Part shown: positions 3,790 through 24,015 of the stretch, piece after piece
Layout of the letters: each line of letters opens with the position of its first letter
How positions within the stretch are numbered: the stretch's first letter is position 1
The notes under the pieces: generated by a model
What the model was told of the DNA's origin: nothing
Database searches by the model: none
What the model saw: the letters and a program-made list of their open reading frames with translations, nothing else
Program-made: the position numbers and the translations under genes
Source: a virus
Taxonomy: Duplodnaviria; Caudoviricetes
IMG/VR virus record: IMGVR_UViG_3300020181_000012
Location: 2,058 to 66,057 of that record
Length of the DNA: 64,000 bases
Direction: 5' to 3' (one strand)

Positions 3790-4066
3790 CTCTTAATCTT
3801 TTAAGTTTTTTCTCATAATTAGGACTATCATAATCTCTTTCAAATACTACTCTTGCTCCTAGATCATTCTGGTATATATCTTGCGCTGTAATACTTAAAC
3901 AATATTTCGATGCTATTGGTGCTAGGAATGTTTGTAAACATCCAAAGTTACCGTAGAAATGTTCATCGTATTTCTGCTTTGATATAACTAAAACTATCTT
4001 TTCAGAGTTGGAGAAAATTTGAGGAATCAAAGATTCCTCAAACTCAACTCTTATCTCCGGAAGCAT
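3698..4066 (-). CDS. Hypothetical protein
   Basis: In-operon ORF; overlaps the downstream gene by about 90 nt. Confidence 0.55.
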   Translation of the reverse strand: MLPEIRVEFEESLIPQIFSNSEKIVLVISKQKYDEHFYGNFGCLQTFLAPIASKYCLSITAQDIYQNDLGARVVFERDYDSPNYEKKLKRLRDGIIQTRPELLGRNGQGMDQHNKGIQETNN

Positions 4067-10816: not shown

Positions 10817-11097
10817 ATAAACTGATTTACAAATTTAATTGCCTTCTCTCTATCAGAGACATAATAATCTAATATCCAAACTCCTTTACTATCCCTCTCC
10901 CAATCTTGCATTTCTCTTATATCATTAAGAGATTCAAGTTTAAATTTCTTTTCCGTATCTACTATTACAATAGTACAATTATCATTAGCTGATCCTCTTA
11001 ATGTTTTATATTTAGAAGGAATTCTTTTAAATAGTTCATTAAGTTCTATTTCTTCTCTATAAGCTTTACCTATAGCATTTTCTTTAATTGTTCTCAT
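10813..11097 (-). CDS. Hypothetical protein, first gene of the leftward arm
   Basis: Leader AATCCAACTTAT shared with the gene starting at 7967. Confidence 0.65.
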   Translation of the reverse strand: MRTIKENAIGKAYREEIELNELFKRIPSKYKTLRGSANDNCTIVIVDTEKKFKLESLNDIREMQDWERDSKGVWILDYYVSDREKAIKFVNQFI

Positions 11098-11234
11098 ATA
11101 AGTTGGATTAAGTTTAAATTAAAATTTGGTTATATACCGGGAGTAGGGAACCCCCTACTTTCAACACCCCTCCTAAGTTTTGGGGAAACAAGTACCCGTG
11201 TCACATTTTAAACATATCAAAACATTTATTTCAC
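11098..11234. promoter_or_regulatory. Divergent control region with GC-rich branched hairpin
   Basis: Strand switch; AGTAGGG-aacc-CCCTACT (11142-11159), CCCC...GGGG (11167-11185), closed by CGGG/CCCG (11138-11141/11195-11198). Confidence 0.6.
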
Positions 11235-11528
11235 ATGAAAGCAACAGTTCAAGCATTTCGTCCAACACAATTTGGTTTCCAAGTTAAAACTGACAAGGGA
11301 ACTTACTATGTACCTTCTCAACTATTTCCTGCTGGTATTGATACTGGTGTGCAAGTTGAATTCGAAGAGCATAAGAAAGGTCAACCATATCCTGCATCAT
11401 TTGGTAAAGCTGGTGAATTCAAGCAAGATGGTATTCATGACATATTCATCGTTAGCACTACTGATCGTTTAGTTGCTGCTAATGCTGTATATACAGCTAA
11501 GATGCAATCTGCATTATCTGAAGCATAA
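11235..11528 (+). CDS. Small beta-rich protein, possible OB fold; first gene of the rightward arm
   Basis: FGFQVKTDKGTYYVP...GVQVEFE beta pattern; biased codon use (GCT, GGT, ACT, TTC); own terminator. Confidence 0.7.
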   Translation: MKATVQAFRPTQFGFQVKTDKGTYYVPSQLFPAGIDTGVQVEFEEHKKGQPYPASFGKAGEFKQDGIHDIFIVSTTDRLVAANAVYTAKMQSALSEA

Positions 11529-11529
11529 T

Positions 11530-11558
11530 GAGTTGGAGCGTAAGCTCCTTCTCTTTTT
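11530..11558 (+). terminator. Rho-independent terminator
   Basis: GGAGC-GTAA-GCTCC (GNRA loop) followed by ttctcttttt. Confidence 0.75.
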
Positions 11559-11580
11559 AATACTCATACTAACACATTAC

Positions 11581-11673
11581 ATGACTGAACTAGAAATTAT
11601 CAATGAAACCTTTCAATGGCTGTTTATAATACTTGCACTTGGATGGTCACTAGTCAATATGTTTTACAATTAA
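11581..11673 (+). CDS. 30-aa TM peptide
   Basis: MTELEIINETFQWLFIILALGWSLVNMFYN; ATG at 11581 with A/C-rich leader. Confidence 0.5.
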   Translation: MTELEIINETFQWLFIILALGWSLVNMFYN

Positions 11674-11699
11674 TTCTCACACTATAACACATTACAACT

Positions 11700-11777
11700 A
11701 TGATTATCAACGGAATTTATTACTCAGTTAGATCTAGAAAGCAAATTGCTAACCTATTTGTTGATCTAAGAGACTAA
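11700..11777 (+). CDS. 25-aa peptide
   Basis: MIINGIYYSVRSRKQIANLFVDLRD; A/C-rich leader. Confidence 0.4.
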   Translation: MIINGIYYSVRSRKQIANLFVDLRD

Positions 11778-11850
11778 ACAACTGCTCTGTATCAGGAAAA
11801 AATCTTTAATTTTATGAGTTAATAGATGAGTAACTTGATGCAGAGCTGTT
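11777..11850 (+). other. Long intergenic stem-loop
   Basis: GCTCTGTATCA/TGATGCAGAGC 11-bp stem plus AACA/TGTT. Confidence 0.6.
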
Positions 11851-11973
11851 ACCCTGAATACCTTATTACCCTGTTATTCAACTTAAACTTCACACTCAAT
11901 ATAATATATCAATCTTATTGAGCATAACACTCAATAACCTCAAATATAACCAACATTTCAAACAACTATTATT

Positions 11974-12069
11974 ATGCAATCACAACTCAAACAATCAATC
12001 AGAATAGCTAAACAACGTCAAATCAAACAAGCTATTAACAATATCAAGCAGAATATCTTCATATTCTAA
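11974..12069 (+). CDS. 31-aa basic peptide (paralog of 23887-24015)
   Basis: MQSQLKQSIRIAKQRQIKQAINNIKQNIFIF; shares K..QIK.AI...K...(F/Y)IF with the antisense peptide. Confidence 0.6.
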   Translation: MQSQLKQSIRIAKQRQIKQAINNIKQNIFIF

Positions 12070-12329
12070 CCTTGCCAACAATCAGTCTTAGCAAGCTCTC
12101 TTGATTTAATTGTAATCCAATGTCTCTCATAAGATAATTGCTGCTTAATATATTCAAGATCTTTAAGATAATAATTAACAGCAAGCTTAACATACATCTC
12201 ATAAACATAACCACGATTAAGATTATGTTCTTTCATATTCTTAATCAGAGTGTTAATCAACTTTTTATTATCAGGCATTACCTTAATAGGAACAAATGTG
12301 AGATTGGTGAAGTTTAAATCATGCCACAA
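12066..12329 (-). CDS. Hypothetical protein, isolated antisense gene in the early region
   Basis: No competing plus-strand ORF here; the start may be the internal ATG (MPDNKK...). Confidence 0.5.
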   Translation of the reverse strand: MWHDLNFTNLTFVPIKVMPDNKKLINTLIKNMKEHNLNRGYVYEMYVKLAVNYYLKDLEYIKQQLSYERHWITIKSRELAKTDCWQG

Positions 12330-12465
12330 GTTCGGTTTATTTTATGAGATTATTCGAAGAATCGTACGTAATATTCCAAGAATATTGAGGCATTATACGC
12401 CTAATTTATAACAATTATATATAATATTTATAGTAATATCACAATATAATCAACACATTAATAAA

Positions 12466-12603
12466 ATGAATAAGTATTTAATAGTAAAAGCAAATGGTGA
12501 AATCATAGTATTAAATGCCTATTTTATTCAGGATTTAATTACAACACTAAAGAATGACTATAAATGGCTTGATACTGATATAACACATATAATCAAGCTA
12601 TAA
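12466..12603 (+). CDS. 45-aa hypothetical peptide
   Basis: Hand-found ORF downstream of a TATCACAATAT motif. Confidence 0.5.
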   Translation: MNKYLIVKANGEIIVLNAYFIQDLITTLKNDYKWLDTDITHIIKL

Positions 12604-12652
12604 AATTAATATTAACTTAAAAGCGTAAGACTACGATACAGTCAACAATACA

Positions 12653-12853
12653 ATGAGAATAATACTACAAAGAAGTCCTGACTCAGCTATACTTATAGAT
12701 ATTGGATATAATACTAAATTACATAGTTCTATGTATTGGTTATCTATTGATAGAGCGTATTATGAATATAATGAAAAAGATTATAGCCGAAGGCTAGTAC
12801 ATGCAAATAGTTTATTTACATGTTTTAAGCACTATAAGTATTGGAATAAATAA
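12653..12853 (+). CDS. Hypothetical protein
   Basis: Early-region ORF. Confidence 0.55.
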   Translation: MRIILQRSPDSAILIDIGYNTKLHSSMYWLSIDRAYYEYNEKDYSRRLVHANSLFTCFKHYKYWNK

Positions 12854-12862
12854 GAAATAATT

Positions 12863-13039
12863 ATGAAATACGCAATTATATTAAAGACTAAGAGAAATGT
12901 ATATCTAGTAGGCTTTACTAATGATCCAATAATACGAGATAATAAACATCCAATTGGAGAAAGATATACAATAGAACTAAAGGAGTTTGATAATTTGTTT
13001 ATTCCTTTAGAAGGAGATGCTGCTGTATACTTATCTTAA
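12863..13039 (+). CDS. 58-aa hypothetical protein
   Basis: Hand-found ORF MKYAIILKTKRNVYLVGF... Confidence 0.5.
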   Translation: MKYAIILKTKRNVYLVGFTNDPIIRDNKHPIGERYTIELKEFDNLFIPLEGDAAVYLS

Positions 13040-13047
13040 TAATCTTT

Positions 13048-13087
13048 TAAGTTAGCCCAATATCATTAATATGTGAGGGCTAACTTA
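13048..13087 (+). other. Stem-loop abutting the TATCACAATAT motif
   Basis: TAAGTTAGCCC/GGGCTAACTTA perfect 11-bp stem. Confidence 0.7.
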
Positions 13088-13122
13088 TATCACAATATAA
13101 ACTATAACTAAACTATAACAAC

Positions 13123-13590
13123 ATGGAAGCAATATATAAACTAATAGTAGCAGATACAAGTAAAGATGTAATTTCATTATACCTTAAACGTATAGTTTTA
13201 ACTATAACTGAGTTTGAGAATAATGCATTCAGAAGATTAGATACAATAATATCTTATGAAAGGTTCGGATATAAGTTAGTATATAATAAAGATATTATTG
13301 AATTATATGAGGCAGAATCATATACAGTATCTAAAGAAGAAAGGAAAGAAATATATAAATCGGCTTTACATCTAATTAATACAGGACAAAATAGATTCTG
13401 CTGTGATGCTATTGGAGTAGTAATACAAAAAGAATATCTACCAGTATTTCCGTTTGGAGCTGTAACCAAAGATTTATTTCCTGAGTTACATTCATTTAAA
13501 CCAGCAAATCATGGAATGGTATGGTGGTCAATGGAGGACAAGGATATTAGAATAAGAGTATTAACTAAATGTATAGAAATGTGTGAATGA
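13123..13590 (+). CDS. Hypothetical protein (FPEL..FKP/WW/CxEMC-type C-terminus)
   Basis: C-terminus resembles that of 14149-14403. Confidence 0.7.
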   Translation: MEAIYKLIVADTSKDVISLYLKRIVLTITEFENNAFRRLDTIISYERFGYKLVYNKDIIELYEAESYTVSKEERKEIYKSALHLINTGQNRFCCDAIGVVIQKEYLPVFPFGAVTKDLFPELHSFKPANHGMVWWSMEDKDIRIRVLTKCIEMCE

Positions 13591-13921
13591 TATGAAAAAG
13601 ATAATATTTATATTACTAATACTTACAGGTTGTAAATATAAAGAGCCAGAGACTAAATGGTTTGAATATGAAATAACTAATCTAAGAATAGATGATGATT
13701 CTGAATATCATTTTACATATACAAATCCAAGAACAGGATATGTAGAATCAGAAGATGATGTTTATACTGTAGAGGTATACAGAAATAATATATCTAAACC
13801 TATTTATAGAAAGCTATTACAAGAACTGACTCAATCAGGTAAGAAGTATTGGGTTAATACAGGAACAACACCTCAAATCATATTACCTATAAACTATAAA
13901 ATAGAAACATTTGATGATTAA
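13583..13921 (+). CDS. Putative lipoprotein
   Basis: MKKIIFILLILTG-C lipobox; likely start at the second Met. Confidence 0.7.
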   Translation: MNDMKKIIFILLILTGCKYKEPETKWFEYEITNLRIDDDSEYHFTYTNPRTGYVESEDDVYTVEVYRNNISKPIYRKLLQELTQSGKKYWVNTGTTPQIILPINYKIETFDD

Positions 13922-13924
13922 ACT

Positions 13925-14146
13925 ATGAGATGTAAACTAATATTACCACAAGATAATAGAGATCCTGATTCAATAAACGTATTTGAACAGAGATTTAAGA
14001 ATATAATGGGTAAAGAATTAACTGATTGGATGCTCATGTGTAAAATGCTAGATTTAGATGATTCTATTATATGGACAGATGGAGAATATAGATTAAGTAT
14101 AAGAGCAGATGATCCATTCTATAAGTTATATAAAATAGATAAATAA
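13925..14146 (+). CDS. Hypothetical protein
   Basis: Early-region ORF. Confidence 0.6.
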   Translation: MRCKLILPQDNRDPDSINVFEQRFKNIMGKELTDWMLMCKMLDLDDSIIWTDGEYRLSIRADDPFYKLYKIDK

Positions 14147-14148
14147 TT

Positions 14149-14403
14149 ATGACTAAAAAACAAACTATAAGTAAGTATAGAAAAAGATTTATATACTTAG
14201 TGTGGGCAAATAGGGTGTATAATGGTAGAAAAACATATTTAAGTACAGATACATTATCACAACTTAGTGAAGAGTTAGCACTATTTTGGCCACATAGATA
14301 TGGATCTATGAATGTAGATCTTTATACATCACAAGAACAAGCAGATAAGAATAGAGAAGCTAAAGTATTCTGCTTATTACTATGTGCAGAGATGTGTAAA
14401 TAA
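14149..14403 (+). CDS. Hypothetical protein
   Basis: Ends R...FCLLLCAEMCK, similar to 13123-13590. Confidence 0.6.
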   Translation: MTKKQTISKYRKRFIYLVWANRVYNGRKTYLSTDTLSQLSEELALFWPHRYGSMNVDLYTSQEQADKNREAKVFCLLLCAEMCK

Positions 14404-14432
14404 TTCTCCCCTTTACAAATAATAGTACAACT

Positions 14433-14663
14433 ATGATAACACTTATAAATATAAATGATAGTAGACTAGTAACACCTGGAGTAACTCTAGAATCAGTAGA
14501 GAGATCGGATATAAAATCTACTGATGTTATAGATCAACCTGATATGTTAATAGTATATGATTGTAAAAGCTTTAAGATATTAAAAAATAGGAGAACATAT
14601 CCTCTACCATTTGTAGTATATCCTATACATGTACTTGGTAGTATTGGATCATTAATTTATTAA
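14433..14663 (+). CDS. Hypothetical protein
   Basis: Early-region ORF. Confidence 0.55.
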   Translation: MITLININDSRLVTPGVTLESVERSDIKSTDVIDQPDMLIVYDCKSFKILKNRRTYPLPFVVYPIHVLGSIGSLIY

Positions 14664-14670
14664 CAATCTC

Positions 14671-14781
14671 AAGATCTATTTGGAGATAGATGTTAGGTAG
14701 ACATAAGTATAACATACTTTGAGAAATGTATATTATACGTCGTAATATATCCTAGCTATAACTATCTCCTTATTAGATCTT
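14671..14781 (+). ncRNA. Multibranch structured intergenic element
   Basis: AAGATCTA/TAGATCTT, GGAGATAG/CTATCTCC, TTAGG/CCTAG nested helices with two inner hairpins. Confidence 0.5.
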
Positions 14782-14810
14782 AAACTTATCACAATATAAA
14801 CTACAAATAA

Positions 14811-15095
14811 ATGGATCAACTTCAAAACACAAAGGACGATTTAAGAAATCTTCTATTATATGTTAGAGCTATATACGAAGTATGGAAAAGACCTCATTAT
14901 ATAACATTAGAGGTATTAATACAGAATATAATAGCAAGAATTAAAGAGCCAGATTTAGGAAGAGATGAAATACACAAATGTCTACAGGCTGTAGAAGCAT
15001 GGTATAATTTTAACCCAAAAGACCATGTTGGAGAGACAGTATATAAGGAATTAGATATGATAATTCAGGGTTATTATATGTCAAATAATTTATAA
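14811..15095 (+). CDS. Hypothetical protein
   Basis: Preceded by TATCACAATATAA. Confidence 0.65.
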   Translation: MDQLQNTKDDLRNLLLYVRAIYEVWKRPHYITLEVLIQNIIARIKEPDLGRDEIHKCLQAVEAWYNFNPKDHVGETVYKELDMIIQGYYMSNNL

Positions 15096-15105
15096 ATATC
15101 ACAAC

Positions 15106-15327
15106 ATGAAAATGATTAATAAAGAAATCAATTCTGATGGTACAACTACTATTAGTGTTGCATATGAAAAAACACATTGGCTATTCTTTAAAAAAGTAGT
15201 TGTAAAGAAATATAAAGCTACTAGAAGATTAGTAGCGGAGTATTGGGTTTGGGTAGAACTACCTGACTATACAAGGGTAGGAGATAGATTATCATTCCAA
15301 TTAGATGAATGGAATAGAATGAAGTAA
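15106..15327 (+). CDS. Hypothetical protein
   Basis: Preceded by TATCACAAC-ATG. Confidence 0.65.
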   Translation: MKMINKEINSDGTTTISVAYEKTHWLFFKKVVVKKYKATRRLVAEYWVWVELPDYTRVGDRLSFQLDEWNRMK

Positions 15328-15330
15328 AAT

Positions 15331-15408
15331 ATTAGTCCATATCCAATTAGGCAGGACAGCATGAGTATACTAGTGTTGGTCAAGGGTCTTAACCTTGTAT
15401 GGACTAAT
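15331..15408 (+). ncRNA. tRNA-like cloverleaf (non-canonical)
   Basis: 11-bp acceptor-like helix, D-like arm TCC-AATTAGGCA-GGA, extended middle arm, T-like arm CAAGG-GTCTTAA-CCTTG; no CCA. Confidence 0.5.
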
Positions 15409-15424
15409 TATTAAATATCACAAT

Positions 15425-15613
15425 ATGGAAAACAATAAGAAATATGTAGTATTAGAACATCTAACACTACCAGATAGAGGATTAAGATTCTGGTCCTGCA
15501 CTAATGAGAACATAAATCTAGAATGGTATAAGATTATACTATATACAGATGATGAAGAAGAAGCAATTAAGAATTGCACAGATCACAATTTAACACGGAT
15601 AATAAAAATATAA
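15425..15613 (+). CDS. Hypothetical protein
   Basis: ATG at 15425 embedded in TATCACAAT-ATG; the track start at 15395 lies inside the cloverleaf. Confidence 0.6.
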   Translation: MENNKKYVVLEHLTLPDRGLRFWSCTNENINLEWYKIILYTDDEEEAIKNCTDHNLTRIIKI

Positions 15614-15622
15614 GATAACTAT

Positions 15623-15799
15623 ATGAACTTAATAATCTATATATTTTTGATTTATGTCTTATGTATGCTATTCGTAGCCATTAAAATAAGAAACACGAGT
15701 GAATTGAAAAGATATTTTATTCTAATATTTCTAGCACCATTTACCATAATATTTATTATTTTTAGTAAGGTTATAATAGGTGATTGGTTAGATGAATAA
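15623..15799 (+). CDS. 58-aa two-TM peptide
   Basis: Hand-found ORF MNLIIYIFLIYVLCMLFVAIKIRN...FILIFLAPFTIIFIIF. Confidence 0.55.
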   Translation: MNLIIYIFLIYVLCMLFVAIKIRNTSELKRYFILIFLAPFTIIFIIFSKVIIGDWLDE

Positions 15800-15803
15800 G
15801 ATC

Positions 15804-15998
15804 TTTATCCTGCTTGAAGTCAAACGGTAACAATAGTAGGTGCGAGTCCTACACTTGAAGAAATTCCGCAAGATAAGTTACAGTTATTCCAGTAGCGTTG
15901 TTTGATGTATATAGGTAATAGTCCAAACGGTTAATGGTAAGGTAAGCTCTTACTATCTTAGTAGGTATTACTCCATGCTGGAACATGGACAGGATAAA
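15804..15998 (+). ncRNA. Candidate structured ncRNA with T-loop and pseudoknot
   Basis: TTTATCCTG/CAGGATAAA closing helix; GTAGG-TGCGAGT-CCTAC; TCCATG-CTGGAA-CATGGA loop complementary to TTCCAG at 15887; no ORF. Confidence 0.6.
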
Positions 15999-16009
15999 TT
16001 ATTAAAAAT

Positions 16010-16141
16010 ATACTAATAGTTGATACTATATAAGGAAGAACACTTATATAGTCAGCTCTGGCTTGAAAGACTGCTAGGCAGTAATAACAAGTAAGCTAAT
16101 AACCTGATAGTAGTGGCGTCCTATAAATCAACTATTAGTAT
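16010..16141 (+). ncRNA. Second structured RNA domain
   Basis: Perfect 14-bp ATACTAATAGTTGA/TCAACTATTAGTAT helix enclosing several hairpins; no ORF. Confidence 0.55.
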
Positions 16142-16160
16142 TTTAAATTAAATAAGATAT

Positions 16161-16358
16161 ATGAATATAAAAGAACAAAACTCATCATTATATTACTATC
16201 TATTAGATTGTAAAAATGAAATTATAATGGGACCTAATAATAAATTCGTTGAAGAATTAATATTCAAGAGAATAGAGGAATTAGATAAGGATACCTTACT
16301 AAAAATTATGGAAATAGCTACTGAAATACGTAAAGATCAATTAGCAAATATAGTATAG
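16161..16358 (+). CDS. Hypothetical protein
   Basis: Early-region ORF. Confidence 0.55.
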   Translation: MNIKEQNSSLYYYLLDCKNEIIMGPNNKFVEELIFKRIEELDKDTLLKIMEIATEIRKDQLANIV

Positions 16359-16361
16359 CAT

Positions 16362-16736
16362 ATGAAACCAATATCAGAAGAACTTAGAAATAGACTTAAA
16401 ACAGAAGATCCTAGTCCTGAATTAGTATTAGAACTTCTTAAAGAGACAAGTCCAGATGAGTATTGTACTCGTCATTGGTGTGAAGGAGAATTTGATAATC
16501 CGGATAAATGTTGTATATTAGGTAGAATAGGGTATGAAGTATCTAGAGATCCAGTATATAGTCTCAAGGCAGAACATTATAGATCTATGGCTAGATCGTA
16601 CAAGTGTAGTCTTTCATCTATTAATGATGGAACTTCTCCAAAATATCAACAAGCCACTCCTTATGAAAGAGTTAAAGCTGCAATGGAAGATTTAATTAAA
16701 CTAAAACAAGATGAAAACACTGAGAAAAGTAATTAA
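16362..16736 (+). CDS. Hypothetical phage protein
   Basis: HWCEG...KCCILGRIG...SINDG pattern typical of small phage Cys/His families. Confidence 0.65.
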   Translation: MKPISEELRNRLKTEDPSPELVLELLKETSPDEYCTRHWCEGEFDNPDKCCILGRIGYEVSRDPVYSLKAEHYRSMARSYKCSLSSINDGTSPKYQQATPYERVKAAMEDLIKLKQDENTEKSN

Positions 16737-17025
16737 TTGGATTATAACTCCCCCTTACAAAAGAATGTCCGAGCTTAATAGTAAAATACGTAGTATTATG
16801 TATTTACTTATATCTGAGGATATAACACCAACACATTTAGAAGTAGTAGATATAAGAGTGATTAAAAATACTAATACTAATATGATTATAAGAGTTAGTT
16901 TAGGTAGGCCTGAACTCCTAATAGGAGAAGAAGGTAAGACTATCAATAGACTTGTTAATCAACTAGCTAAGGTATTTAGAAAGAAAGTAGAAATACAGAT
17001 TAAGGAAGTAAATGTATGGCTGTAA
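16711..17025 (+). CDS. Type II KH-domain protein (ribosomal uS3-like)
   Basis: RPELLIGEEGKTINRL...KVEIQIKEV matches the uS3 KH pattern RPG.(L/V)IG..G..I..L. Confidence 0.75.
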   Translation: MKTLRKVINWIITPPYKRMSELNSKIRSIMYLLISEDITPTHLEVVDIRVIKNTNTNMIIRVSLGRPELLIGEEGKTINRLVNQLAKVFRKKVEIQIKEVNVWL

Positions 17026-17294
17026 GAACACCTAAAACTATTAATGGATTAGTAAAAGCTATTGAACAGCATGCTGCTATTAGTGGTGGAGTAATAAGAG
17101 AAATATGGAGATGTAATGCTGGATGGGGAATAATATATTCTCTAACTCCTATAGCTATGCAAAGAGCTAAATATGGAAATATAATAGTATATGGATATTA
17201 TCCTACTCTAGAACAATGTATTAAGGAAGAATATAAAAGAATAGTATTAAGGCAAAAAGTAAAAGGCGGTGAAGCCGAATGGGTAATTAAATAA
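17016..17294 (+). CDS. Hypothetical protein
   Basis: In-operon ORF. Confidence 0.6.
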   Translation: MAVRTPKTINGLVKAIEQHAAISGGVIREIWRCNAGWGIIYSLTPIAMQRAKYGNIIVYGYYPTLEQCIKEEYKRIVLRQKVKGGEAEWVIK

Positions 17295-17317
17295 TTTCAC
17301 AATATAAATATCACAAT

Positions 17318-17596
17318 ATGTCAGCATCAATAAATAGACTATCAAATAGTCTACAATCAGTTCAAGATATAATTATTGGTATATATGTAGATCCAACTAA
17401 AAGGATTGAACTTATAGTATCAAAAGGAGATTATACCTTTAAAACAGTTAGTGTTGGATCTCTATTTGGATTATCTATTAGTAATTATCCCTTAAATAGA
17501 GTCATACATTTATTTCCTGATAACAAAACACTATCGGAAATGATGCAAGATCCTATAGAGTTTGATAAATGGTGTAAAGAGAACATTAACATATAA
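17318..17596 (+). CDS. Hypothetical protein
   Basis: Preceded by a tandem TCACAATAT motif. Confidence 0.65.
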   Translation: MSASINRLSNSLQSVQDIIIGIYVDPTKRIELIVSKGDYTFKTVSVGSLFGLSISNYPLNRVIHLFPDNKTLSEMMQDPIEFDKWCKENINI

Positions 17597-17606
17597 TTAT
17601 CACAAT

Positions 17607-18431
17607 ATGAAAAACAATAACAAAGTAATTGGACAAGAGGTACTAATTAAAGAAGTTAATAAAATATTAGAAATATTTAAGGCTTCTAAATGTACTGTTA
17701 GACCACATTTTATATTAACTGGACCATCAGGTAGTGGTAAATCATTTACCATTAAGAATCTAGCTCAAGAGAATGAATTAGGATTCTTAGAAATTAATGC
17801 TGCACAGCTAACTAAAGAAGGTACATCAGGTAATAGTTTATCTAAGGCTCTATCTCCATTATCACAATTAGGTTCTAAACCATGTATTGTATTTGTAGAT
17901 GAATTTGATAAGCTATTTATATCTGGTAATTCTAATGATAGTGCTGCACATGAAAGTACAACAGGAGTTCAGAATGAATTCCTTAAAGTATTAGAGTCAG
18001 ATACAGCTAGTGTATTCGGTGATTATGGTAAATACATTAATGTGCCAATTAAGAATGTATTATTTATATTTGCTGGTGCATTTAATGGTGAAGAGAATAT
18101 AAGTCTTGATAGACTAAGAGAAATAGGTCTAAAGACTGAATTTCTTGGTAGAGTGGGATTAGTATATAATACTATGCCTTTAACTCTTGATTCATTGTAT
18201 GCTATTATAGATAAATCTGAACTTTTAAGCAAATATCTTGAATTATTTGAAGGTGTAGATAGAGAGCAAGTTACATACGAGCTTAAAGCCTATATTAAAA
18301 GAAATTATGAGATGAATACGCTAGGAGCTAGATTAATCAATACACTTATTCATCAGTATTTCATCAAAGGTGGAAAACTAGGTGAAGAAGAAGTAAAAGA
18401 TATGTCTTTTCAGAAGAAGCTAAAGATGTAA
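17607..18431 (+). CDS. ClpX/HslU-clade AAA+ ATPase, minimal form
   Basis: VIGQE, GPSGSGKS, FVDEFDK, GVQNEFLKVLE, FIFAGAF, GLKTEFLGRV, LGAR; start at 17607 (TATCACAAT-ATG). Confidence 0.85.
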   Translation: MKNNNKVIGQEVLIKEVNKILEIFKASKCTVRPHFILTGPSGSGKSFTIKNLAQENELGFLEINAAQLTKEGTSGNSLSKALSPLSQLGSKPCIVFVDEFDKLFISGNSNDSAAHESTTGVQNEFLKVLESDTASVFGDYGKYINVPIKNVLFIFAGAFNGEENISLDRLREIGLKTEFLGRVGLVYNTMPLTLDSLYAIIDKSELLSKYLELFEGVDREQVTYELKAYIKRNYEMNTLGARLINTLIHQYFIKGGKLGEEEVKDMSFQKKLKM

Positions 18432-18598
18432 TGAAAGAGGGATTATACATAAATGAGTATAATGAACTAATAGAAATCATCAACACCTTTGAAGATACTT
18501 ATGTAGAGTATGTAGTAAGAGGTGTTGATGAATATAAAGTTAATACAATAGTAAGCTATTTATTTTTTACTTATGCAATAGATTATGAAAACAGATAA
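18431..18598 (+). CDS. 55-aa hypothetical protein
   Basis: Hand-found ORF coupled to the AAA gene stop (TAATG). Confidence 0.5.
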   Translation: MKEGLYINEYNELIEIINTFEDTYVEYVVRGVDEYKVNTIVSYLFFTYAIDYENR

Positions 18599-19101
18599 AC
18601 AAAAATATAGATTAGGAAGAAAAGAATCTAGAGTAATTCTTACTAATGATGGAACAGTAGAAGTAGCTGCAGTATCATTTACGAAAGGTCATGAAGTATT
18701 AGCTAAGAAAGTAGTGGATATTCTAAATAGTGAAATTGTAGATAAGAAAGAATATTATATGTTCTGCTATATATTTCAATGATGGTAATAAATATCCTCA
18801 CCAACCTAAGAACATTAGTCATGGATTTGTAATTACTGGAAGAAGACATAACAATTGTTATGCTACTCTTCAATCAATTGGCACAACTCTTGGTATTGAA
18901 GGAATAGTGAAGAAGAAACTAGGAGATAGAATAGATAGAGATCGTCAAGGTTTTCTTACTAATCTCGATAGATTTGTTGATAGAAAAGAAGCTATGAAGA
19001 TAGCTAAAAGTGCTAATCAATTATTACGTCCTGAATTTCATGAGGATAATGATGATGCTATACTAACAAGTGAGGATCTTTATAGTGAAGATCTGTATTA
19101 G
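18585..19101 (+). pseudogene. Frameshifted two-part gene
   Basis: The frame of 18907-19101 is open back to 18742 (IICSAIYFNDG...HQPKNI...GRRHNNC) with no ATG, overlapping the end of 18585-18782. Confidence 0.55.
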
Positions 19102-19170
19102 CAATATAAGATATAACAAAATAAAAAATTAAGAAAATTATTTTACAACTTAAATAAACTATGTAATTTT

Positions 19171-19470
19171 ATGTGTCGAAAATCAAGAAACTTTAAAGGT
19201 CTTAAAGACCTAGACATTGATGCACTTACAATAGATAGAGGAATACCTATTCCTTATTGTAGAAAACCTCAAGATAGTAACTCAGCTAAATTAAGAGAAA
19301 AACTATCTAAACTAAAGGGTACAGGATCAATTTTTATACCTGTAAAACACAAAGAAGCTAGTTCTATAATAACTGCTGTATATGCACAGGCTAAGAAAGC
19401 TGAAATTAAAGTAACAATTAAAAGTGTAAAAGAAGGTAAGTCTGAAGGTATTCGTATCTGGAAGGCTTAA
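19171..19470 (+). CDS. Small phage DNA-binding-like protein (I.K.IP...GIRIW family)
   Basis: IDRGIPIP...GIRIWKA; paralog at 29215. Confidence 0.65.
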   Translation: MCRKSRNFKGLKDLDIDALTIDRGIPIPYCRKPQDSNSAKLREKLSKLKGTGSIFIPVKHKEASSIITAVYAQAKKAEIKVTIKSVKEGKSEGIRIWKA

Positions 19471-19472
19471 AC

Positions 19473-19522
19473 AATAGATAACTATTCTCGGTGATTAACA
19501 ACAAGTCGTTGGGTTATCTATT
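19473..19522 (+). other. Intergenic stem-loop
   Basis: AATAGATAAC/GTTATCTATT 10-bp stem. Confidence 0.6.
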
Positions 19523-19537
19523 TAAACTTAAACAAAT

Positions 19538-19903
19538 ATGACAAATATAAAGAAAAAGAAAAGGAGTATAACTATATTCCTAAACATAATGCTAGTTGTT
19601 ACTTTAACAACATCTCTACTTTTTGATCCTGTACTTAGACATTTTAATCTTCAGAATGAAATTAATGGTATTATGCATTATTTTATAATTGCATCAGAAT
19701 TATTAATAATAGTAATACTATCTTGTGAATACGGAAAGTATGCATATATATTAACTATTACTAGTGTTAATCTTACTAATAAGGTTAAAAGAATAGAGGC
19801 AGAAATAACTGATAAATACGGAGACAAAATAATTTTTCAGGTTAAGGATTATAATATAAATGTGGATACAGATGAATACGACGAAGAACTCTACAAAAAC
19901 TAA
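19538..19903 (+). CDS. Two-TM membrane protein
   Basis: Two hydrophobic segments, acidic tail. Confidence 0.65.
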   Translation: MTNIKKKKRSITIFLNIMLVVTLTTSLLFDPVLRHFNLQNEINGIMHYFIIASELLIIVILSCEYGKYAYILTITSVNLTNKVKRIEAEITDKYGDKIIFQVKDYNINVDTDEYDEELYKN

Positions 19904-20054
19904 TCTATATGTTATAGATTACTATTTAAATGGTAGAGTAAAAGAAACTATTAATCTTGATAAACCATGTAATATATTTATTACTCAATCCAAGATTAAG
20001 GAGTTATCTAACTCTACTCATAAATTAGGGAAACTAATTAAAAGAAAAATATGA
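19860..20054 (+). CDS. Hypothetical protein
   Basis: In-operon ORF. Confidence 0.5.
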   Translation: MWIQMNTTKNSTKTNLYVIDYYLNGRVKETINLDKPCNIFITQSKIKELSNSTHKLGKLIKRKI

Positions 20055-21175
20055 AAGATGAAGAAAAAGATTTATATGAAATAGGTACTAAGGTAGCTAT
20101 TCCTCTGACTAAAAGAGGGAAGAATATTGATGAAGATTGTACTTCTATTAAAGGAGCTAAAAACAAAGGACAAGATTTCTTATATTATAGAGGACAAGAT
20201 ACTGATTTTCATGGTATTAAGATTCATCTTCTATCTTTTGAAGAAAATGGAGGAGGGGATTTCTTTGATAGAGAAGAAGTAATAGATGCTAGAATAAGAT
20301 ATTTAGAAAGATTTGGTTCAATTCCTAGAAGTAAAAGCAAATCTCGAATCCAAAACAGGTCAGGAGTCTTATTATTTCCTTTTAATACTAAAGTAGCATT
20401 TCCTAAAACTAAAAAAGGAAAAAAGATAGATTCTCTAGGAAAGGATAAAGATGGTAATATAATATGTAATGGAATTAGAGACGCTTCCAAAAATGAACAA
20501 TATTTTCTTTATTATAAAGGAATAGATGAAGAGGGAGAACACATGTTGTGGCATATTAAAGAAAATAAATATGGTAATTATTACAGTATAGAAGAGATAA
20601 GAGAAGCCAGAGCTGAGTATCTTAAAAGAAGAGATCAAAGAGTAGATACAATTACTGAGGAACATTCTACAAAAGATAGTCCAATGATAGCATCTAATTA
20701 TTCTATACAAGCTGTTAATTCTCTATTTAATATGGAAGAAATTCAGAAAAGTATAGAGAGATTAAGTCCAGGTATATATAAAGATGTAAAAATACAGGAT
20801 CATTCTTATATAACCACAGGTAGATGTTCTGGTAAATCTTGGTATTACGAACAAGAGAAAAGAGTTCTGAAAGAGTACGGTGAAGAATTATATAAAATGT
20901 TATCAAAATATACTCATAAAGCTAAATCTCCTTGGGATTATGATTTAATACAGGAGATGGAAGATGAAGCAAAATGGTATAATAAATCTATGCCAGGAAA
21001 AGGATTATCAACTTTTAAGGTTAGATTTGATGAAGCTTATTTTCCTTATCAAGCTAATGTTCATTTTGCTTCTACTGGATCTGGTAAAAGCATGACTATT
21101 CACAATTATATCTTTGGATATGATCCATGTGATAAAACTAATGAATTAAACGAAGAATTATTACTAATTTACTAA
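20051..21175 (+). CDS. Mosaic protein with tandem N-terminal repeat
   Basis: TKVA.P.TK.GK.I...FLYY.G.D...EE...AR..YL.R occurs twice; the C-terminus has P-loop-like fragments. Confidence 0.75.
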   Translation: MKDEEKDLYEIGTKVAIPLTKRGKNIDEDCTSIKGAKNKGQDFLYYRGQDTDFHGIKIHLLSFEENGGGDFFDREEVIDARIRYLERFGSIPRSKSKSRIQNRSGVLLFPFNTKVAFPKTKKGKKIDSLGKDKDGNIICNGIRDASKNEQYFLYYKGIDEEGEHMLWHIKENKYGNYYSIEEIREARAEYLKRRDQRVDTITEEHSTKDSPMIASNYSIQAVNSLFNMEEIQKSIERLSPGIYKDVKIQDHSYITTGRCSGKSWYYEQEKRVLKEYGEELYKMLSKYTHKAKSPWDYDLIQEMEDEAKWYNKSMPGKGLSTFKVRFDEAYFPYQANVHFASTGSGKSMTIHNYIFGYDPCDKTNELNEELLLIY

Positions 21176-21192
21176 CTTAAACAAAATAAAAC

Positions 21193-21456
21193 ATGAAGTA
21201 CATTGAAAGACTAGCACAAGATAAAGATCAAATTAAAAAAGAAACAAGAGAATTTGATAATAAGATAGCTAAAGCTGATGCTGAAAAAGAAATAGCGGGT
21301 CTTGAACTTGATATTATTACTCTTGAACAAGAAATTAATGGAATAATGAAGGCAAAACCTTTCATTCTTCTTAATGTAGTTAAGGCTCAGGAAAAACTAA
21401 AAATCCTTAAAGGAAGATTAGAAAGAGCTAATGAAGTAATGACTGAATTGTTCTAA
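21193..21456 (+). CDS. Coiled-coil protein
   Basis: Heptad-rich E/K/L sequence. Confidence 0.7.
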   Translation: MKYIERLAQDKDQIKKETREFDNKIAKADAEKEIAGLELDIITLEQEINGIMKAKPFILLNVVKAQEKLKILKGRLERANEVMTELF

Positions 21457-21473
21457 TGATACTCCTTCTCATA

Positions 21474-21519
21474 TGTAAAACAGTAGTGCTATTTATAGCA
21501 TTACTGTTTACTTTACATG
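21474..21519. terminator. Long hairpin, terminator or processing site
   Basis: AAACAGTAGTGCTA-ttt-ATAGCATTACTGTTT, about 14 bp. Confidence 0.6.
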
Positions 21520-21533
21520 GTATCTTGGAAATA

Positions 21534-21629
21534 ATGTCAGATAGAATAAGATACAAAAAATTACTGTTTACAGGAATTATGTGGGTATCTATATCTTGGG
21601 CATTATTTTACTTCTTAAGTAACTTATAG
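21534..21629 (+). CDS. 31-aa single-TM peptide
   Basis: MSDRIRYKKLLFTGIMWVSISWALFYFLSNL. Confidence 0.5.
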   Translation: MSDRIRYKKLLFTGIMWVSISWALFYFLSNL

Positions 21630-21632
21630 TTA

Positions 21633-21663
21633 TTGCATTTTACAACATAAAGTAATATATTTT
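21633..21663 (+). promoter_or_regulatory. Possible Bacteroidota-type promoter (variant)
   Basis: TTG-N20-TATATTTT versus the consensus TTTG-N19-21-TAnnTTTG. Confidence 0.3.
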
Positions 21664-21680
21664 CACAAAATTATAAAACT

Positions 21681-21959
21681 ATGAAAAAGACAAAAAATCT
21701 TACAATTGGAGTAGCTATATTACTTCTATGTATATTTACTACCGTAGCTTTAGGTACAACAAGAGTTATAGATAAGAATCTATTTATGGGTTTATTTATG
21801 TCTCTACTAATGATTAGTATAGTATATGGATCTTATGTGATAAGAATACTCATTACTAATTCAATACTAGAAGGTAAAAGAGGAGAAAGAAGATTGAAGA
21901 AGTATTATGAGGAAGGATATACTCATGTAAGTGAATACAATGAATATCAAATATTTTAA
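21681..21959 (+). CDS. Two-TM membrane protein
   Basis: Two hydrophobic helices. Confidence 0.65.
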   Translation: MKKTKNLTIGVAILLLCIFTTVALGTTRVIDKNLFMGLFMSLLMISIVYGSYVIRILITNSILEGKRGERRLKKYYEEGYTHVSEYNEYQIF

Positions 21960-21968
21960 ATAACTATT

Positions 21969-22313
21969 ATGAAAAATCTACTAGAGGAAACAATAAGGAT
22001 ATTAAAAAGTAATAATAAATCAGAAGAAGATGTACTATGGGTTGGAAATACTAAGATTAAAACTACATGGGAAAACTTTAAGGATATTTCTGATATGGAA
22101 TATGATAGTGGATTTGGAGGTCAAGAAGTCGCTACTGATTTACTAATTGTTGGTAAAGATTGGTGGCTTGAGAGACATGAATATGATGGTTCTGAATAGT
22201 GGGAGTTTAAACAACTTCCAGTAGAGCCTATAGAATCAGTAGAACTTAAAACAGTAATGGGAGGTTCGTGGGATTCTTTAGGAAGATTAAATAATTTGGA
22301 TCTCAATGACTAG
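21969..22313 (+). pseudogene. Phage protein interrupted by in-frame TAG at 22197-22199
   Basis: ...WWLERHEYDGSE-TAG-WEFKQLP... the frame continues for 37 codons. Confidence 0.6.
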
Positions 22314-22338
22314 TGTTATGAAAAGGTAAAATTAATAT

Positions 22339-22605
22339 ATGCTTAAGACAGATAATAAAAAAGGGATCTCCTTCGTAAGGGTGATCCCTTTTTTGAATAT
22401 AGAATTTAAGGTAAAGTTGGCTAATGAAGAACTAGATATAAGAGATCACTTTGATCTACACACAGAGAATGCTTATACTACATTTCTATCTTTAATAAAA
22501 GATGATGTAAAACAATATTATAAAAATAAAGGTATAGATATACCTAAAAAGAAAGTGCAGCCTAAAGGAGATTCTGGCTGGATAAATAGAATCTTCAAAA
22601 AGTAA
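22339..22605 (+). CDS. Hypothetical protein
   Basis: In-operon ORF. Confidence 0.6.
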   Translation: MLKTDNKKGISFVRVIPFLNIEFKVKLANEELDIRDHFDLHTENAYTTFLSLIKDDVKQYYKNKGIDIPKKKVQPKGDSGWINRIFKK

Positions 22606-23164: not shown

Positions 23165-23197
23165 CCCCTCTAGGCTTAACGGCTTAGAGGGTTATTT
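23165..23197 (+). terminator. Rho-independent terminator
   Basis: CCCCTCTAGGC-ttaacg-GCTTAGAGGGG then ttattt. Confidence 0.7.
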
Positions 23198-23886: not shown

Positions 23887-24015
23887 TTAAAAGATGTAGA
23901 AGCCTTTCTTAGAAAGAAAGATAGCATTTTTTATCTGCTTCATTTTAGACTGCTTCACAGTAATATCCTTATTGCTGTTAGCTTTGATTGCAGGTTTTGT
24001 TAGAGTTGTTTCCAT
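23887..24015 (-). CDS. 42-aa antisense basic peptide (paralog of 11974-12069)
   Basis: METTLTKPAIKANSNKDITVKQSKMKQIKNAIFLSKKGFYIF; has its own promoter and terminator. Confidence 0.65.
   Translation of the reverse strand: METTLTKPAIKANSNKDITVKQSKMKQIKNAIFLSKKGFYIF

Follow-up and report, generated by a model that had tools for sequence, protein, structure and literature searches.

A candidate array of short early transcription units and large sense-strand stem-loops in a soil crAss-like phage

The region from 11.5 to 17.6 kb of the window, by which we mean the whole 64,000-nucleotide stretch of virus record IMGVR_UViG_3300020181_000012 analyzed here, is tentatively best explained as the early region of a phage, next to a strand switch and arranged as an array of about nine short units with a phage-specific promoter, sense-strand 3' hairpins and often leaderless genes. 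Taken as a whole, we give this explanation slightly less than even confidence. To judge by its encoded proteins, the window derives from an uncultured soil crAss-like phage: the terminase shares 36% identity with crAss-like phages over its full length, and the top matches to PolA are also crAss-like. The G+C content is about 30%, and the host is probably a member of the Bacteroidota. Shine-Dalgarno signals are not enriched (14 of 112, versus 11% at random), the early block contains no correctly oriented promoters of the host type (TTG..TAnnTTTG), and no single upstream promoter was found that would drive one long early transcript. The left edge of the block is marked by a canonical terminator on the + strand (11535..11558), a GGAGC/GCTCC stem followed by TTCTCTTTTT, downstream of an ORF at 11235-11528.

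A recurrent word in the early block

The word TATCACAATAT, referred to here as motif I, is present in six exact copies and two with one mismatch, while its degenerate form TAWCACAWYAY occurs nine times against 1.04 expected, exclusively on the + strand between 11570 and 17608. Positions T1, C4, A5, C6, A7 and A10 are invariant, a pyrimidine precedes A10, and the upstream flank is composed only of A and T. The two leftmost copies are of the variant TAACACATTAC: one (11570..11580) abuts the ATG of a 30-aa ORF (11581-11673), and the 12-mer recurs at 11685, where the second copy (11685..11695) is followed 4 nt downstream by the ATG of a 25-aa ORF (11700-11777). The copy at 12437..12447 heads a three-ORF unit (45, 66 and 58 aa) with its ATG 18 nt downstream at 12466, that at 13088..13098 precedes a five-ORF unit (155, 109, 73, 84 and 76 aa) by 24 nt (ATG 13123), and that at 14787..14797 lies 13 nt from ATG 14811. 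Directly after a stop codon at 15095, the final two bases of the copy TATCACAACAT (15097..15107) form the AT of ATG 15106. Overlap with the ATG is also seen at 15416..15426 (ATG 15425) and at 17598..17608 (ATG 17607, which begins a ClpX-like AAA ATPase gene). A tandem arrangement occupies 17295..17319, with TTTCACAATAT starting at 17295 and then TATCACAATAT, starting at 17309 and overlapping ATG 17318. Overall, the spacing between word and ATG covers 0-24 nt: four copies overlap the ATG, one abuts it and four lie at 4-24 nt. No copy was found before the internal genes of multi-gene groups. A second motif, ACTTAAACAA, is located at 19526-19535 on the + strand, 3 nt after a stem-loop (H6) described below.

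The original prediction was right that this word is real, but the leader role that it proposed does not fit as well. Given its fixed strand, its confinement to a 6-kb block, its variable distance to the ATG, its absence before internal genes and its tandem copy, motif I appears to behave as the promoter of one temporal class, and this distribution therefore points to many short units instead of one long T7-like precursor. If, as is likely, transcription starts at the invariant A at position 10, four genes would therefore be leaderless and the others would have leaders of 2-26 nt; leaderless translation of these four early genes is assumed.

An alternative, to which we give a low probability, starts from one or a few long early transcripts. 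A nuclease specific for double strands (host RNase III, by analogy with early T7 RNA) would cleave these at the stems, yielding mRNAs with protective 3' hairpins and released structured pieces; TATCACAATAT would then be an RNA leader or translation signal and not a promoter. The overlap of the word with the AUG in four genes suits such an RNA-level role, whereas the 0-24 nt scatter in its distance to the ATG, its restriction to the 6-kb block with none at internal genes, and the missing upstream promoter for a long transcript are better matched by a promoter class. In T7, the early region has three promoters at its left end and none between the RNase III sites, in contrast to the present block with its promoter-like word behind most boundaries.

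Stem-loops behind early genes

Seven of the eight folds listed in the original prediction exceed shuffled sequence (200 shuffles per element, z -2.6 to -6.8). H1 (11780..11850, +) is a bulged stem-loop without a U tract, 3 nt past the stop codon that ends the 25-aa ORF; it has four G-U pairs and an energy of -26.7 kcal/mol on the + strand versus -13.9 kcal/mol on the - strand (z -5.96 for 11777-11850). H2 (13048..13087, +; z -6.75) has a stem of 11 bp plus 4 bp, begins 9 nt past a stop at 13039, and adjoins motif I with its last base. H3 (14671..14781, +; z -5.12), a branched 111-nt element with two closing 8-bp helices, runs from 8 nt past a stop at 14663 to 5 nt before motif I. H6 (19473..19522, +) has a stem of 11 bp plus 8 bp with five G-U pairs on the + strand and lies 3 nt past a stop at 19470. 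H7 (21474..21519, +; z -5.10), a near-perfect 14-bp hairpin, is probably of a different class from the other elements, being located inside an ORF (21456-21629) for a hydrophobic protein of 57 aa. No shuffle out of 200 folded as well as 11777-11850, 13048-13087, 14671-14781, 16010-16141 or 21474-21519; significance is weaker for 15331-15408 (z -2.60, 4 of 200 shuffles) and 19473-19522 (z -3.06, 1 of 200), and 15800-16000 as a whole is not significantly folded (z -1.44, 18 of 200). The claim that most gaps hold self-contained folds is partly upheld, the exceptions being 15804-15998 (z -1.4) and the fold at 21474-21519, which is not in a gap. The stretch from 12.6 to 19.6 kb has eight gaps of at least 40 nt, and folding is significant in five of them; no significant fold was found in 12604-12652, 19102-19170 or 18783-18906, the last of which is probably coding via a frameshift.

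A count of perfect inverted repeats (arms of at least 10, loops of 15-140) in the 1,534 nt of early gaps gave four, versus 0.25 in dinucleotide shuffles, none of 500 of which reached four, a roughly tenfold excess. The density is 2.6 per kb in early gaps versus 0.45 per kb in coding DNA. Closing helices are perfectly Watson-Crick paired over 11-15 bp, with loops of 18-102 nt. The early-block stems start 3-9 nt past stop codons, and, as predicted, a U tract is absent (after six of seven), with only 2-5 scattered T within the next 10 nt. T runs do follow hairpins outside the block, at 11535, 22357, 33522, 34249 and 49973. A stem stands directly before motif I at three of ten copies (13087|13088, 14781/14787 and 15408/15416, spacing 0-7 nt), and H1, H5 and H6 follow stops with no motif I after them. 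We found no sequence common to the elements, and no paralogues or homologues in 1.1 Mb of related phage DNA. A repeated cassette of structure, leader and micro-ORF thus overstates the arrangement, because only three hairpins abut the word, inner genes lack it, and most ORFs are of 45-155 aa; micro-ORFs number just three (25-31 aa, 11581-12069), the remaining ORFs being of 45-274 aa.

These stems share several properties with the T7 sites R0.3 to R1.3: they are intergenic stem-loops on the sense strand of an early block, lack U tracts and could leave protective 3' hairpins. In T7 RNase III sites, an internal loop lies between two helices, an architecture also seen in H1, H3 and H6, and H5 lies inside a unit, where it would be transcribed through. 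Unlike the T7 sites, the helices here are shorter (11-15 bp is short for RNase III), the loops are much larger and branched, and the host is probably a member of the Bacteroidota. RNase III-type processing of the early RNA is possible, but nothing in the results points specifically to that enzyme.

It is very improbable that the stems work instead as DNA, in the form of cruciforms or extruded hairpins. In that capacity they would be promoter elements of a virion polymerase, like those of N4, or sites of replication or recombination. The hairpins recognized by the N4 virion RNA polymerase have 5-7-bp stems and 3-nt loops and are obligatory. The resemblance is that three stems with perfect Watson-Crick closing helices end 0-7 nt upstream of the early start word in a phage expected to inject its polymerase. 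Moreover, the virion polymerase of the crAss-like Cellulophaga phage phi14:2 accepts no template in vitro other than single-stranded or denatured DNA (bioRxiv 10.1101/2020.03.07.982082). Against a DNA role, the present stems are large (11-15 bp, loops of 18-102 nt) and optional, seven of ten motif copies having none, and they occur after stop codons even where no motif follows (H1, H5 and H6). All eight elements also fold better on the + strand, clearly so for H1, H6 and H7 because of G-U pairs, which supports action as sense RNA, as the original prediction supposed, over action as DNA cruciforms.

tRNA-like features of the larger elements

Two elements are tRNA-shaped, one of them carrying an exact T arm of phage tRNA-Tyr. 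H4 (15331..15408, +), a 78-nt element extending from 4 nt past a stop at 15327 to 7 nt before motif I, comprises a closing helix with perfect 11-bp arms, a D-like loop containing GG, a middle arm, and a T-like arm of 5 bp with a 7-nt loop, stacked on the closing helix. Its cloverleaf has the minimum free energy (-24.2), yet neither ARAGORN nor Rfam matched it as a tRNA. H5a (15804..15998, +) is an ORF-free stretch with stops in all six frames. Its hairpin at 15836-15852 is identical, letter for letter, to the phage tRNA-Tyr T arm; the 17-mer occurs at 57 viral loci, 36 of them called tRNAs and 27 of these Tyr. The hairpin is flanked by an acceptor-like pairing of 7-8 bp with one G-G mismatch, although pairing at six of seven acceptor positions is common by chance. 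H5b (16010..16141, +; z -4.60) is a three-way 132-nt element with a perfect 15-bp closing helix flanked by an A-run and a T-run, and it lies within a unit whose downstream genes (16161-17294) lack a motif I of their own. The 361-nt gap holding the H5 region is closed in all frames.

H4 and H5 have, by these structural models, features of stable RNAs. It is nevertheless rather unlikely that H3, H4, H5a and H5b are primarily stable non-coding RNA genes within early operons, tRNA-like and excised by RNase P/Z. Such RNAs would serve as decoys, regulators or punctuation, and their genes would parallel the tRNA, tmRNA and ribozyme genes of relatives. tRNA-like processing signals are familiar from mitochondrial tRNA punctuation and from the mascRNA element of MALAT1, and H4 (cloverleaf order, T-like arm stacked on the closing helix) and H5a (a true T arm) recall them. 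Relatives hold tmRNA, permuted tmRNA, tRNA and pistol ribozyme genes in comparable slots near the same ATPase gene, and the fully closed 361-nt gap would accommodate an RNA gene. In phi14:2, long ORF-free early stretches yield abundant stable non-coding RNAs (bioRxiv 10.1101/2020.03.07.982082), and one such region holds a tmRNA. On the other hand, every tRNA and tmRNA model and all Rfam models fail on the larger elements, alignment to the permuted tmRNAs of relatives is unconvincing, and the elements lack an anticodon arm of tRNA geometry and CCA, the T loop of H4 being off-consensus. The H5a fold does not exceed shuffles, its acceptor pairing is of a kind frequent by chance, homologues and paralogues are absent from the 1.1 Mb of related phage DNA, and no TROVE/Ro partner was found in the contig.

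Less probable still is that the elements are decaying tRNA or tmRNA relics together with incidental palindromes, with at most weak termination activity today. In favor of this reading, the window has zero tRNA genes, compared with as many as 12, and tmRNAs besides, in relatives; a T arm is the only tRNA part of H5; the 361-nt gap agrees with the tmRNA length of relatives (359-408 nt); and every element is unique. However, perfect helices of 11-15 bp at 30% G+C would decay quickly without selection, and decay accounts poorly for the tenfold enrichment over shuffles, the exact placement between stop codon and next motif, and the consistent sense-strand bias.

A possible mechanism and its relation to known phage systems

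In the favored explanation, each unit would begin at the phage-specific promoter word TAWCACAWY-A, and four units would close with a large sense-strand stem-loop that lacks a U tract, 3-9 nt past the last stop. The stem-loops may form or protect, or both, the 3' ends of early RNAs. They could do so by stopping a polymerase that ignores hairpin-plus-U terminators or, once the RNA has been cut, by keeping exonucleases out, and they may insulate the next promoter, which is within 0-7 nt in three cases. H4 and H5a/H5b, by their modeled structures, are probably also kept as stable tRNA-like RNAs. Because of its membership in the crAss-like family, the phage would use a crAss-type virion RNA polymerase; the 66-kb contig lacks a DFDxD motif and yielded no such gene, which may lie in the missing third of the genome. 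Several observations run counter to this explanation, among them these: the elements, at 78-340 nt, are far bigger than a terminator requires; a hairpin is missing from five unit boundaries; and H5 lies upstream of four genes without their own motif, so read-through must be at least partial. As in intrinsic terminators, a stem-loop directly follows a unit's last gene, and H5b has the flanking A-run and T-run; unlike them, six of seven lack a U tract and the loops are of 18-102 nt instead of 3-8. Ordinary hairpin-plus-U terminators occur in this genome only outside the early block.

That this is not a described system, as originally suggested, is too strong, since promoter-genes-hairpin units, the units of P23-45 and the early non-coding RNAs of phi14:2 have all been described. 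In the Thermus phage P23-45, pre-early units are transcribed by a virion RNA polymerase from a promoter motif of their own and end at an unusual terminator motif, a conserved 26-nt sequence that the terminators have in common (bioRxiv 10.1101/2022.12.01.518664). Common to P23-45 and, putatively, the present phage are a cluster of short units, a promoter motif particular to them, and termination signals that are non-canonical and unlike those of the rest of the genome. The hairpins here, however, have no common sequence, and the polymerases are unrelated in detail. phi14:2, of the same phage order by terminase, transcribes its early genes with a rifampicin-resistant virion polymerase (Drobysheva et al., bioRxiv 10.1101/2020.03.07.982082). 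The ORF-free stretch of phi14:2 spans 1.7 kb, and neither sequence nor models relate it to the present elements. Since no shared motif was found upstream of its early transcripts (bioRxiv 10.1101/2020.03.07.982082), a strong early motif would not be the norm of the family. The layout in the present phage is real and non-random, but we read it as ordinary promoter-genes-hairpin units in an unusual form.

Units of the early block and the words that begin them

Gene calls combined with the copies of an 11-letter promoter-like word (degenerate form TAWCACAWYAY) divide the block into about nine units. The word at 11570 precedes a 30-aa ORF, and that at 11685 a 25-aa ORF followed by hairpin H1 (11780-11850). 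The copy at 12437 leads into three ORFs and hairpin H2 (13048-13087), the copy at 13088 into five ORFs and H3 (14671-14781), and the copy at 14787 into one ORF. From 15097 there is one ORF and then H4 (15331-15408), and from 15416 two ORFs, the double element H5a/H5b (15804-15998 and 16010-16141) and four further ORFs without a word of their own. Tandem copies at 17295/17309 serve one ORF, and the last copy, at 17598, stands before the ATPase gene and beyond. H2, H3 and H4 end 0, 5 and 7 nt from the next word, respectively. The original prediction had described repeated cassettes of fold, leader and micro-ORF; this order of stem and then word holds at three of the ten copies, while five boundaries have no stem and the micro-ORFs are the first three only.

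The exact word TATCACAATAT occurs six times, with two further copies at one mismatch, and the degenerate form occurs nine times against 1.04 expected, always on the plus strand, between 11570 and 17608. In an alignment of the copies with that at 17295, little or no variation is seen at T1, C4, A5, C6, A7 and A10; a pyrimidine occupies position 9 and a purine position 12, and each of the five bases before the word is A or T. In four copies (15097, 15416, 17309 and 17598) the final two letters are the AT of the ATG start codon; the copy at 11570 abuts its ATG, and others lie 4, 13, 18 and 24 nt upstream. Internal genes of multi-gene groups have no copy. The fixed strand, the confinement to a single block beside a strand switch, the variable distance to the ATG and the absence at internal genes argue for a promoter class over a leader or ribosome signal. 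Over-represented, oriented, limited to one block, placed at the first genes of units and variably spaced, the word has the sequence properties of a phage-specific early promoter class, and we infer that it is one. If the invariant A10 were the start point, four of the mRNAs would be leaderless.

Positions 3 and 8 of the word differ in concert, T..A in most copies and A..T at 11570-11580 and 11685-11695, so that TAW and WTA could still pair as a 3-bp stem with CACA as its loop. Both A..T copies belong to one repeated 12-mer and thus represent a single event, and the copies at 15097 and 17295 break the middle pair. A 17-mer of the extended motif gave only single, chance-like matches in IMG/VR.

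A second word, ACTTAAACAA, takes over from 19148 onward. Its 10 exact copies are oriented with the genes of both arms and stand 4-16 nt ahead of ATGs; allowing one mismatch raises the count to 29, against 13 expected (for example at 5709, 5928, 8435 and 9390 on the minus strand and 19526, 21175, 24054 and 38432 on the plus strand). Hairpin H6 (19473-19522) ends 3 nt before a copy. This word probably marks the next temporal class, as a promoter or a start signal. Promoters of the Bacteroidota host type (TTG..TAnnTTTG) were not enriched, none being correctly oriented in the block, and a sigma-70 scan fell below shuffle expectation.

The phage comes from a soil sample, the source of the 66-kb IMG/VR contig most of which the window covers, and it is also present on a 94.4-kb contig in a public assembly of the same sample. 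Over its full length, the large terminase, encoded on the minus strand at 1-1812, has 35-36% identity to those of gut crAss-like phages, and it also matches Flavobacterium and Cellulophaga crAss-like phages; the top matches of the PolA-type DNA polymerase are likewise crAss-like. By the ClpX-like ATPase (17607-18431), the closest cultured phages are those of Chryseobacterium and Tenacibaculum, and Flavobacteriia, the hosts of those phages, are candidate hosts here too. The window has a G+C content of about 30% and strand switches near 12.0 and 50.0 kb. Shine-Dalgarno words precede 14 of 112 genes, against 11% at random, and this background frequency is consistent with a Bacteroidota-type host. 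No DFDxD polymerase motif was found in the window, so the presence of a virion RNA polymerase would follow from family membership only; a TROVE/Ro protein was not found in the contig.

About 30 early ORFs received no assignment from Pfam or PHROGs, as is common for early phage genes. A 31-aa peptide (11974-12069, plus strand) and a minus-strand ORF of 42 aa from the gap ahead of polA (23887-24015) have nine of 24 C-terminal residues in common (E = 3e-4, in a single comparison), which hints at a small paralogous pair. Beyond the ATPase gene, the plus-strand ORF 18585-18782 ends in TGA at 18780-18782, and the +1 frame is open from GAT 18781 to 19101, with its first ATG at 18994. Either a sequencing error or a +1 frameshift, for which CAA-TGA-T is the candidate site, would join parts of 65 and 106 aa, which have no Pfam match. 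The apparent gap at 18783-18906 is thus likely to be coding sequence.

Two styles of hairpin

In an intrinsic terminator, a U tract comes after a G+C-rich stem whose loop is short. Outside the block, ordinary terminators of this form, short-loop G+C-rich hairpins followed by T runs, are found at 11535, 22357, 33522, 34249 and 49973, and weaker examples at 23166 and 45910. The stems of the block begin 3-9 nt past a stop codon, enclose 18-102 nt of further structure within closing helices of 8-15 perfect pairs, and lack a trailing T run, with only two to five scattered T in the 10-nt tail. With such tails and loops they were rejected as intrinsic terminators, and a scan with the intrinsic-terminator consensus returned no sites other than those at 11535 and 22377 and a weak one within H6. 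It is in this contrast between U-less block stems and U-tailed terminators elsewhere that the finding is firmest.

The plus-strand ORF 11235-11528 ends in a canonical terminator immediately ahead of the first motif copy; to its left, the gap between the divergent arms (11098-11283) is weakly folded (z -1.75 on the plus strand, 0.0 on the minus strand). The called ORF 22339-22605 includes the bidirectional terminator at 22357-22394, and ATG 22424 is the likelier start of that ORF. In addition, ORF 21969-22199 stops at a TAG followed by 36 open codons (22197-22310) to the next TAG, a possible case of read-through or recoding.

When each stretch was compared with 200 shuffles, no shuffle folded as well as 11777-11850 (z -5.96), 13048-13087 (z -6.75), 14671-14781 (z -5.12), 16010-16141 (z -4.60) or 21474-21519 (z -5.10), one did for 19473-19522 (z -3.06), four for 15331-15408 (z -2.60), and 18 for 15800-16000 (z -1.44), which as a whole stretch is not significant. 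On a simple gene map, five of the eight gaps of at least 40 nt between 12.6 and 19.6 kb fold significantly. The element at 21474-21519 (H7) is not intergenic, since it sits within a hydrophobic 57-aa ORF that overlaps the preceding stop in ATGA fashion. Perfect inverted repeats with arms of at least 10 number 46 in the window, 11 of them in non-coding DNA (10% of the total). The early gaps, 1534 nt in total, contain four with long loops (15-140 nt); dinucleotide shuffles give 0.25, and four was not reached in any of 500. Their density is 2.6 per kb in early gaps versus 0.45 per kb in coding DNA. The pattern described in the original prediction is non-random and confirmed in part.

For all eight elements the plus (sense) strand is at least as stable as its complement. 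H1 (-26.7 versus -13.9 kcal/mol), H6 and H7 show a clear bias, which G-U pairs cause; given this bias, the structures look like RNA features, not DNA cruciforms. A role of the stems at the DNA level is further disfavored by the word copies that have no stem, and we consider it highly improbable. In the N4 type of hairpin promoter, each early start has a short hairpin, with a 5-7-bp stem and a 3-nt loop, at a constant upstream spacing; this type was rejected here, as a stem lies upstream of only three of ten word copies and the stems have 11-15 bp and long loops. With no word in common, the hairpins are not copies of a mobile element. Searches with covariance models built on H4 and H5b recovered only the two elements themselves, with no paralogue in the window and no match in 1.1 Mb of relatives' loci. 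Miniature mobile palindromic elements, which occur as several similar copies with common inverted repeats at their ends, were likewise rejected.

Processing sites of the T7 RNase III type are intergenic stem-loops on the sense strand; they span roughly two turns of helix, lack a U tract, frequently contain an internal loop, and are cut by RNase III to leave discrete 5' monophosphate and 3' hydroxyl ends. H1, H3 and H6 have 16-19 bp spread over two helices, and H2, H4 and H5b have closing helices of 11-15 bp with large loops. Cutting of the early transcript by RNase III would account for the U-less stems and for read-through at H5, but not for the distribution of the word: T7-type sites all belong to a single long transcript and are not separated by promoters, whereas here the putative promoter precedes most units and follows H2-H4 by 0-7 nt. 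We regard such processing as unlikely. Of the original prediction, which had an early transcript cut in this manner and structured RNAs released, the RNA-level punctuation is supported, and the single long RNase III-cut transcript is probably not correct.

An array of short early units is the reading that we prefer, tentatively and with somewhat less than even confidence, as it explains most features: the word statistics, the positions, the greater stability of the sense strand and the contrast to U-tailed terminators. In this arrangement, the word would be a phage-specific promoter starting each unit, and the sense-strand hairpins would form or protect the 3' ends. The virion-polymerase units of phage P23-45 offer a precedent for short early units (bioRxiv 10.1101/2022.12.01.518664). 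The short-unit arrangement does not explain the size of the elements or the position of H5 in the middle of a unit.

The larger elements

H4 (78 nt, 15331-15408) can be drawn as a cloverleaf whose energy equals the minimum free energy exactly. Its closing helix has 11 bp, and a 5-bp/7-nt arm stacks on this helix; the other parts are a D-like loop that contains GG and a middle arm. A tRNA has a 7-bp acceptor, a D arm, a 5-bp/7-nt anticodon arm and a T arm; the middle arm and the T-like loop of H4 differ from these. Within H5a, the hairpin at 15836-15852 (GTAGGTGCGAGTCCTAC) is identical at every letter to the T arm seen in many tRNA genes of phages, with the T loop TGCGAGT instead of TTCGAAT. 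The 17-mer is present in 57 viral loci of IMG/VR, where ARAGORN called 36 tRNAs, 27 of them tRNA-Tyr, and in the called tRNAs it is always at the T-arm position. The hairpin is flanked by 7-8 bp of acceptor-like pairing with one G-G mismatch, which is not significant alone, as 6-of-7 pairings are frequent by chance. H5b is a three-way element with 15 perfect closing pairs and flanks of an A run and a T run.

ARAGORN found no tRNA or tmRNA in the window, and at relaxed thresholds returned noise scattered through coding DNA. No match at gathering score was found with 4227 Rfam models over the whole window, and at E up to 5-10 there were chance-level matches only in 11000-22500 and 15700-16250. 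Membership in the tRNA family was rejected on the ARAGORN result, the lack of a RF00005 match at E up to 5-10 and the non-tRNA middle arm of H4. A tmRNA combines a tRNA-like domain (GGGG-type acceptor, T arm and CCA end) with a tag reading frame. H5 was considered as a permuted tmRNA, as relatives have such genes, and was rejected because their conserved blocks were absent in the alignment; neither RF00023 nor RF04321 matched 15700-16250 at E up to 10. Self-cleaving ribozymes and other Rfam families were set aside as well, no model fitting any element. That the elements are relics of tRNA or tmRNA genes is quite improbable, being disfavored by their long perfect helices and their placement. 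The 361-nt gap that holds H5 contains all three kinds of stop in all six frames, and the gaps that contain the H elements were rejected as coding sequence under reassigned stops.

Structured RNAs in the early regions of relatives

Sixty-five IMG/VR loci have the ATPase gene, at 41-82% protein identity. The ATPase gene alone is alike in DNA, and these loci have neither a homologue of the early ORFs nor the word. A megablast of the region against the phage collection gave no match, nor did a search of IMG/VR with the 374-aa protein, and the 155-aa ORF has no protein homologue. The 124-aa ORF is the sole early ORF with homologues, two proteins (P0003, encoded on a 6.5-kb Logan contig, and P0004, encoded on a 63.8-kb JGI contig) that are 54-61% identical to it; their alignment found no match among viral and metagenome contigs. 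Contigs of two soil DNA runs carry identical phage sequence with zero variants, leaving no microdiversity with which to test base pairs, and the phage was found in none of the runs recorded as RNA.

RNAs of the relatives were sought within 10 kb on either side of the ATPase gene, not at fixed syntenic positions. Standard tmRNAs were found in two of these loci (L004, 4927-5313; L011, 15436-15843), permuted tmRNAs in L037 (2530-2919) and in Chryseobacterium phage MA9V-3 (L067, 13667-13891), and a pistol ribozyme in L037 (7409-7463); tRNAs number up to 12 (in L010). The tmRNAs and the ribozyme sit among small early ORFs, and the window has none of these RNAs. In L002, L008/L010, L011, L037, L053, L067 and L095 there are many intergenic elements of 50-135 nt that resemble those of the block, with 10-13 perfect closing pairs and long purine-rich interiors, and that are not tRNAs. 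One of them, at 4755-4829 in L008, is identical to 9523-9597 in L010 and lies 3 nt ahead of a tRNA-Met gene. These may be a recurrent, unclassified type of element in this phage group.

In Cellulophaga phage phi14:2 (L095), two long early intergenic regions are transcribed above most genes, and no early promoter motif was detected (bioRxiv 10.1101/2020.03.07.982082). We found by ARAGORN that a 1.7-kb ORF-free stretch of this genome holds a tmRNA at 4031-4502 with the tag GSSVQKLAMVA. Its match to RF00023 (46.0 bits, E = 2.6e-16) is 1 bit under the gathering score, and its 5' and 3' ends are canonical. The tmRNA gene thus lies under one of the unexplained abundant early RNAs of that phage. No similarity was found between the non-coding regions of phi14:2 and the block elements.

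The structured RNAs kept near the ATPase gene of relatives favor the possibility that H3-H5 are stable tRNA-like RNAs, which is compatible with the short-unit arrangement; we judge it unlikely. More speculative still is a joint reading, in which the word would be the first sequence-defined promoter of a crAss-type virion polymerase, with an A start and leaderless mRNAs, and H4 and H5a would act as punctuation at which host RNase P/Z cleaves, releasing stable tRNA-like decoys or regulators. If true, it would mean a tRNA-punctuated early transcriptome in a phage. If the elements are terminators only, the early genes have an ordinary layout, though one unusual in look.

Few phages known are as abundant as the crAss-like phages. 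The sharp repeated word, its copies overlapping start codons and the U-less hairpins at unit ends provide a set of templates for in-vitro promoter and terminator tests of the crAss-type polymerase. Together with the tmRNAs, tRNAs and ribozyme of relatives, the tRNA-shaped elements point to the early region as a routine home of structured RNAs.
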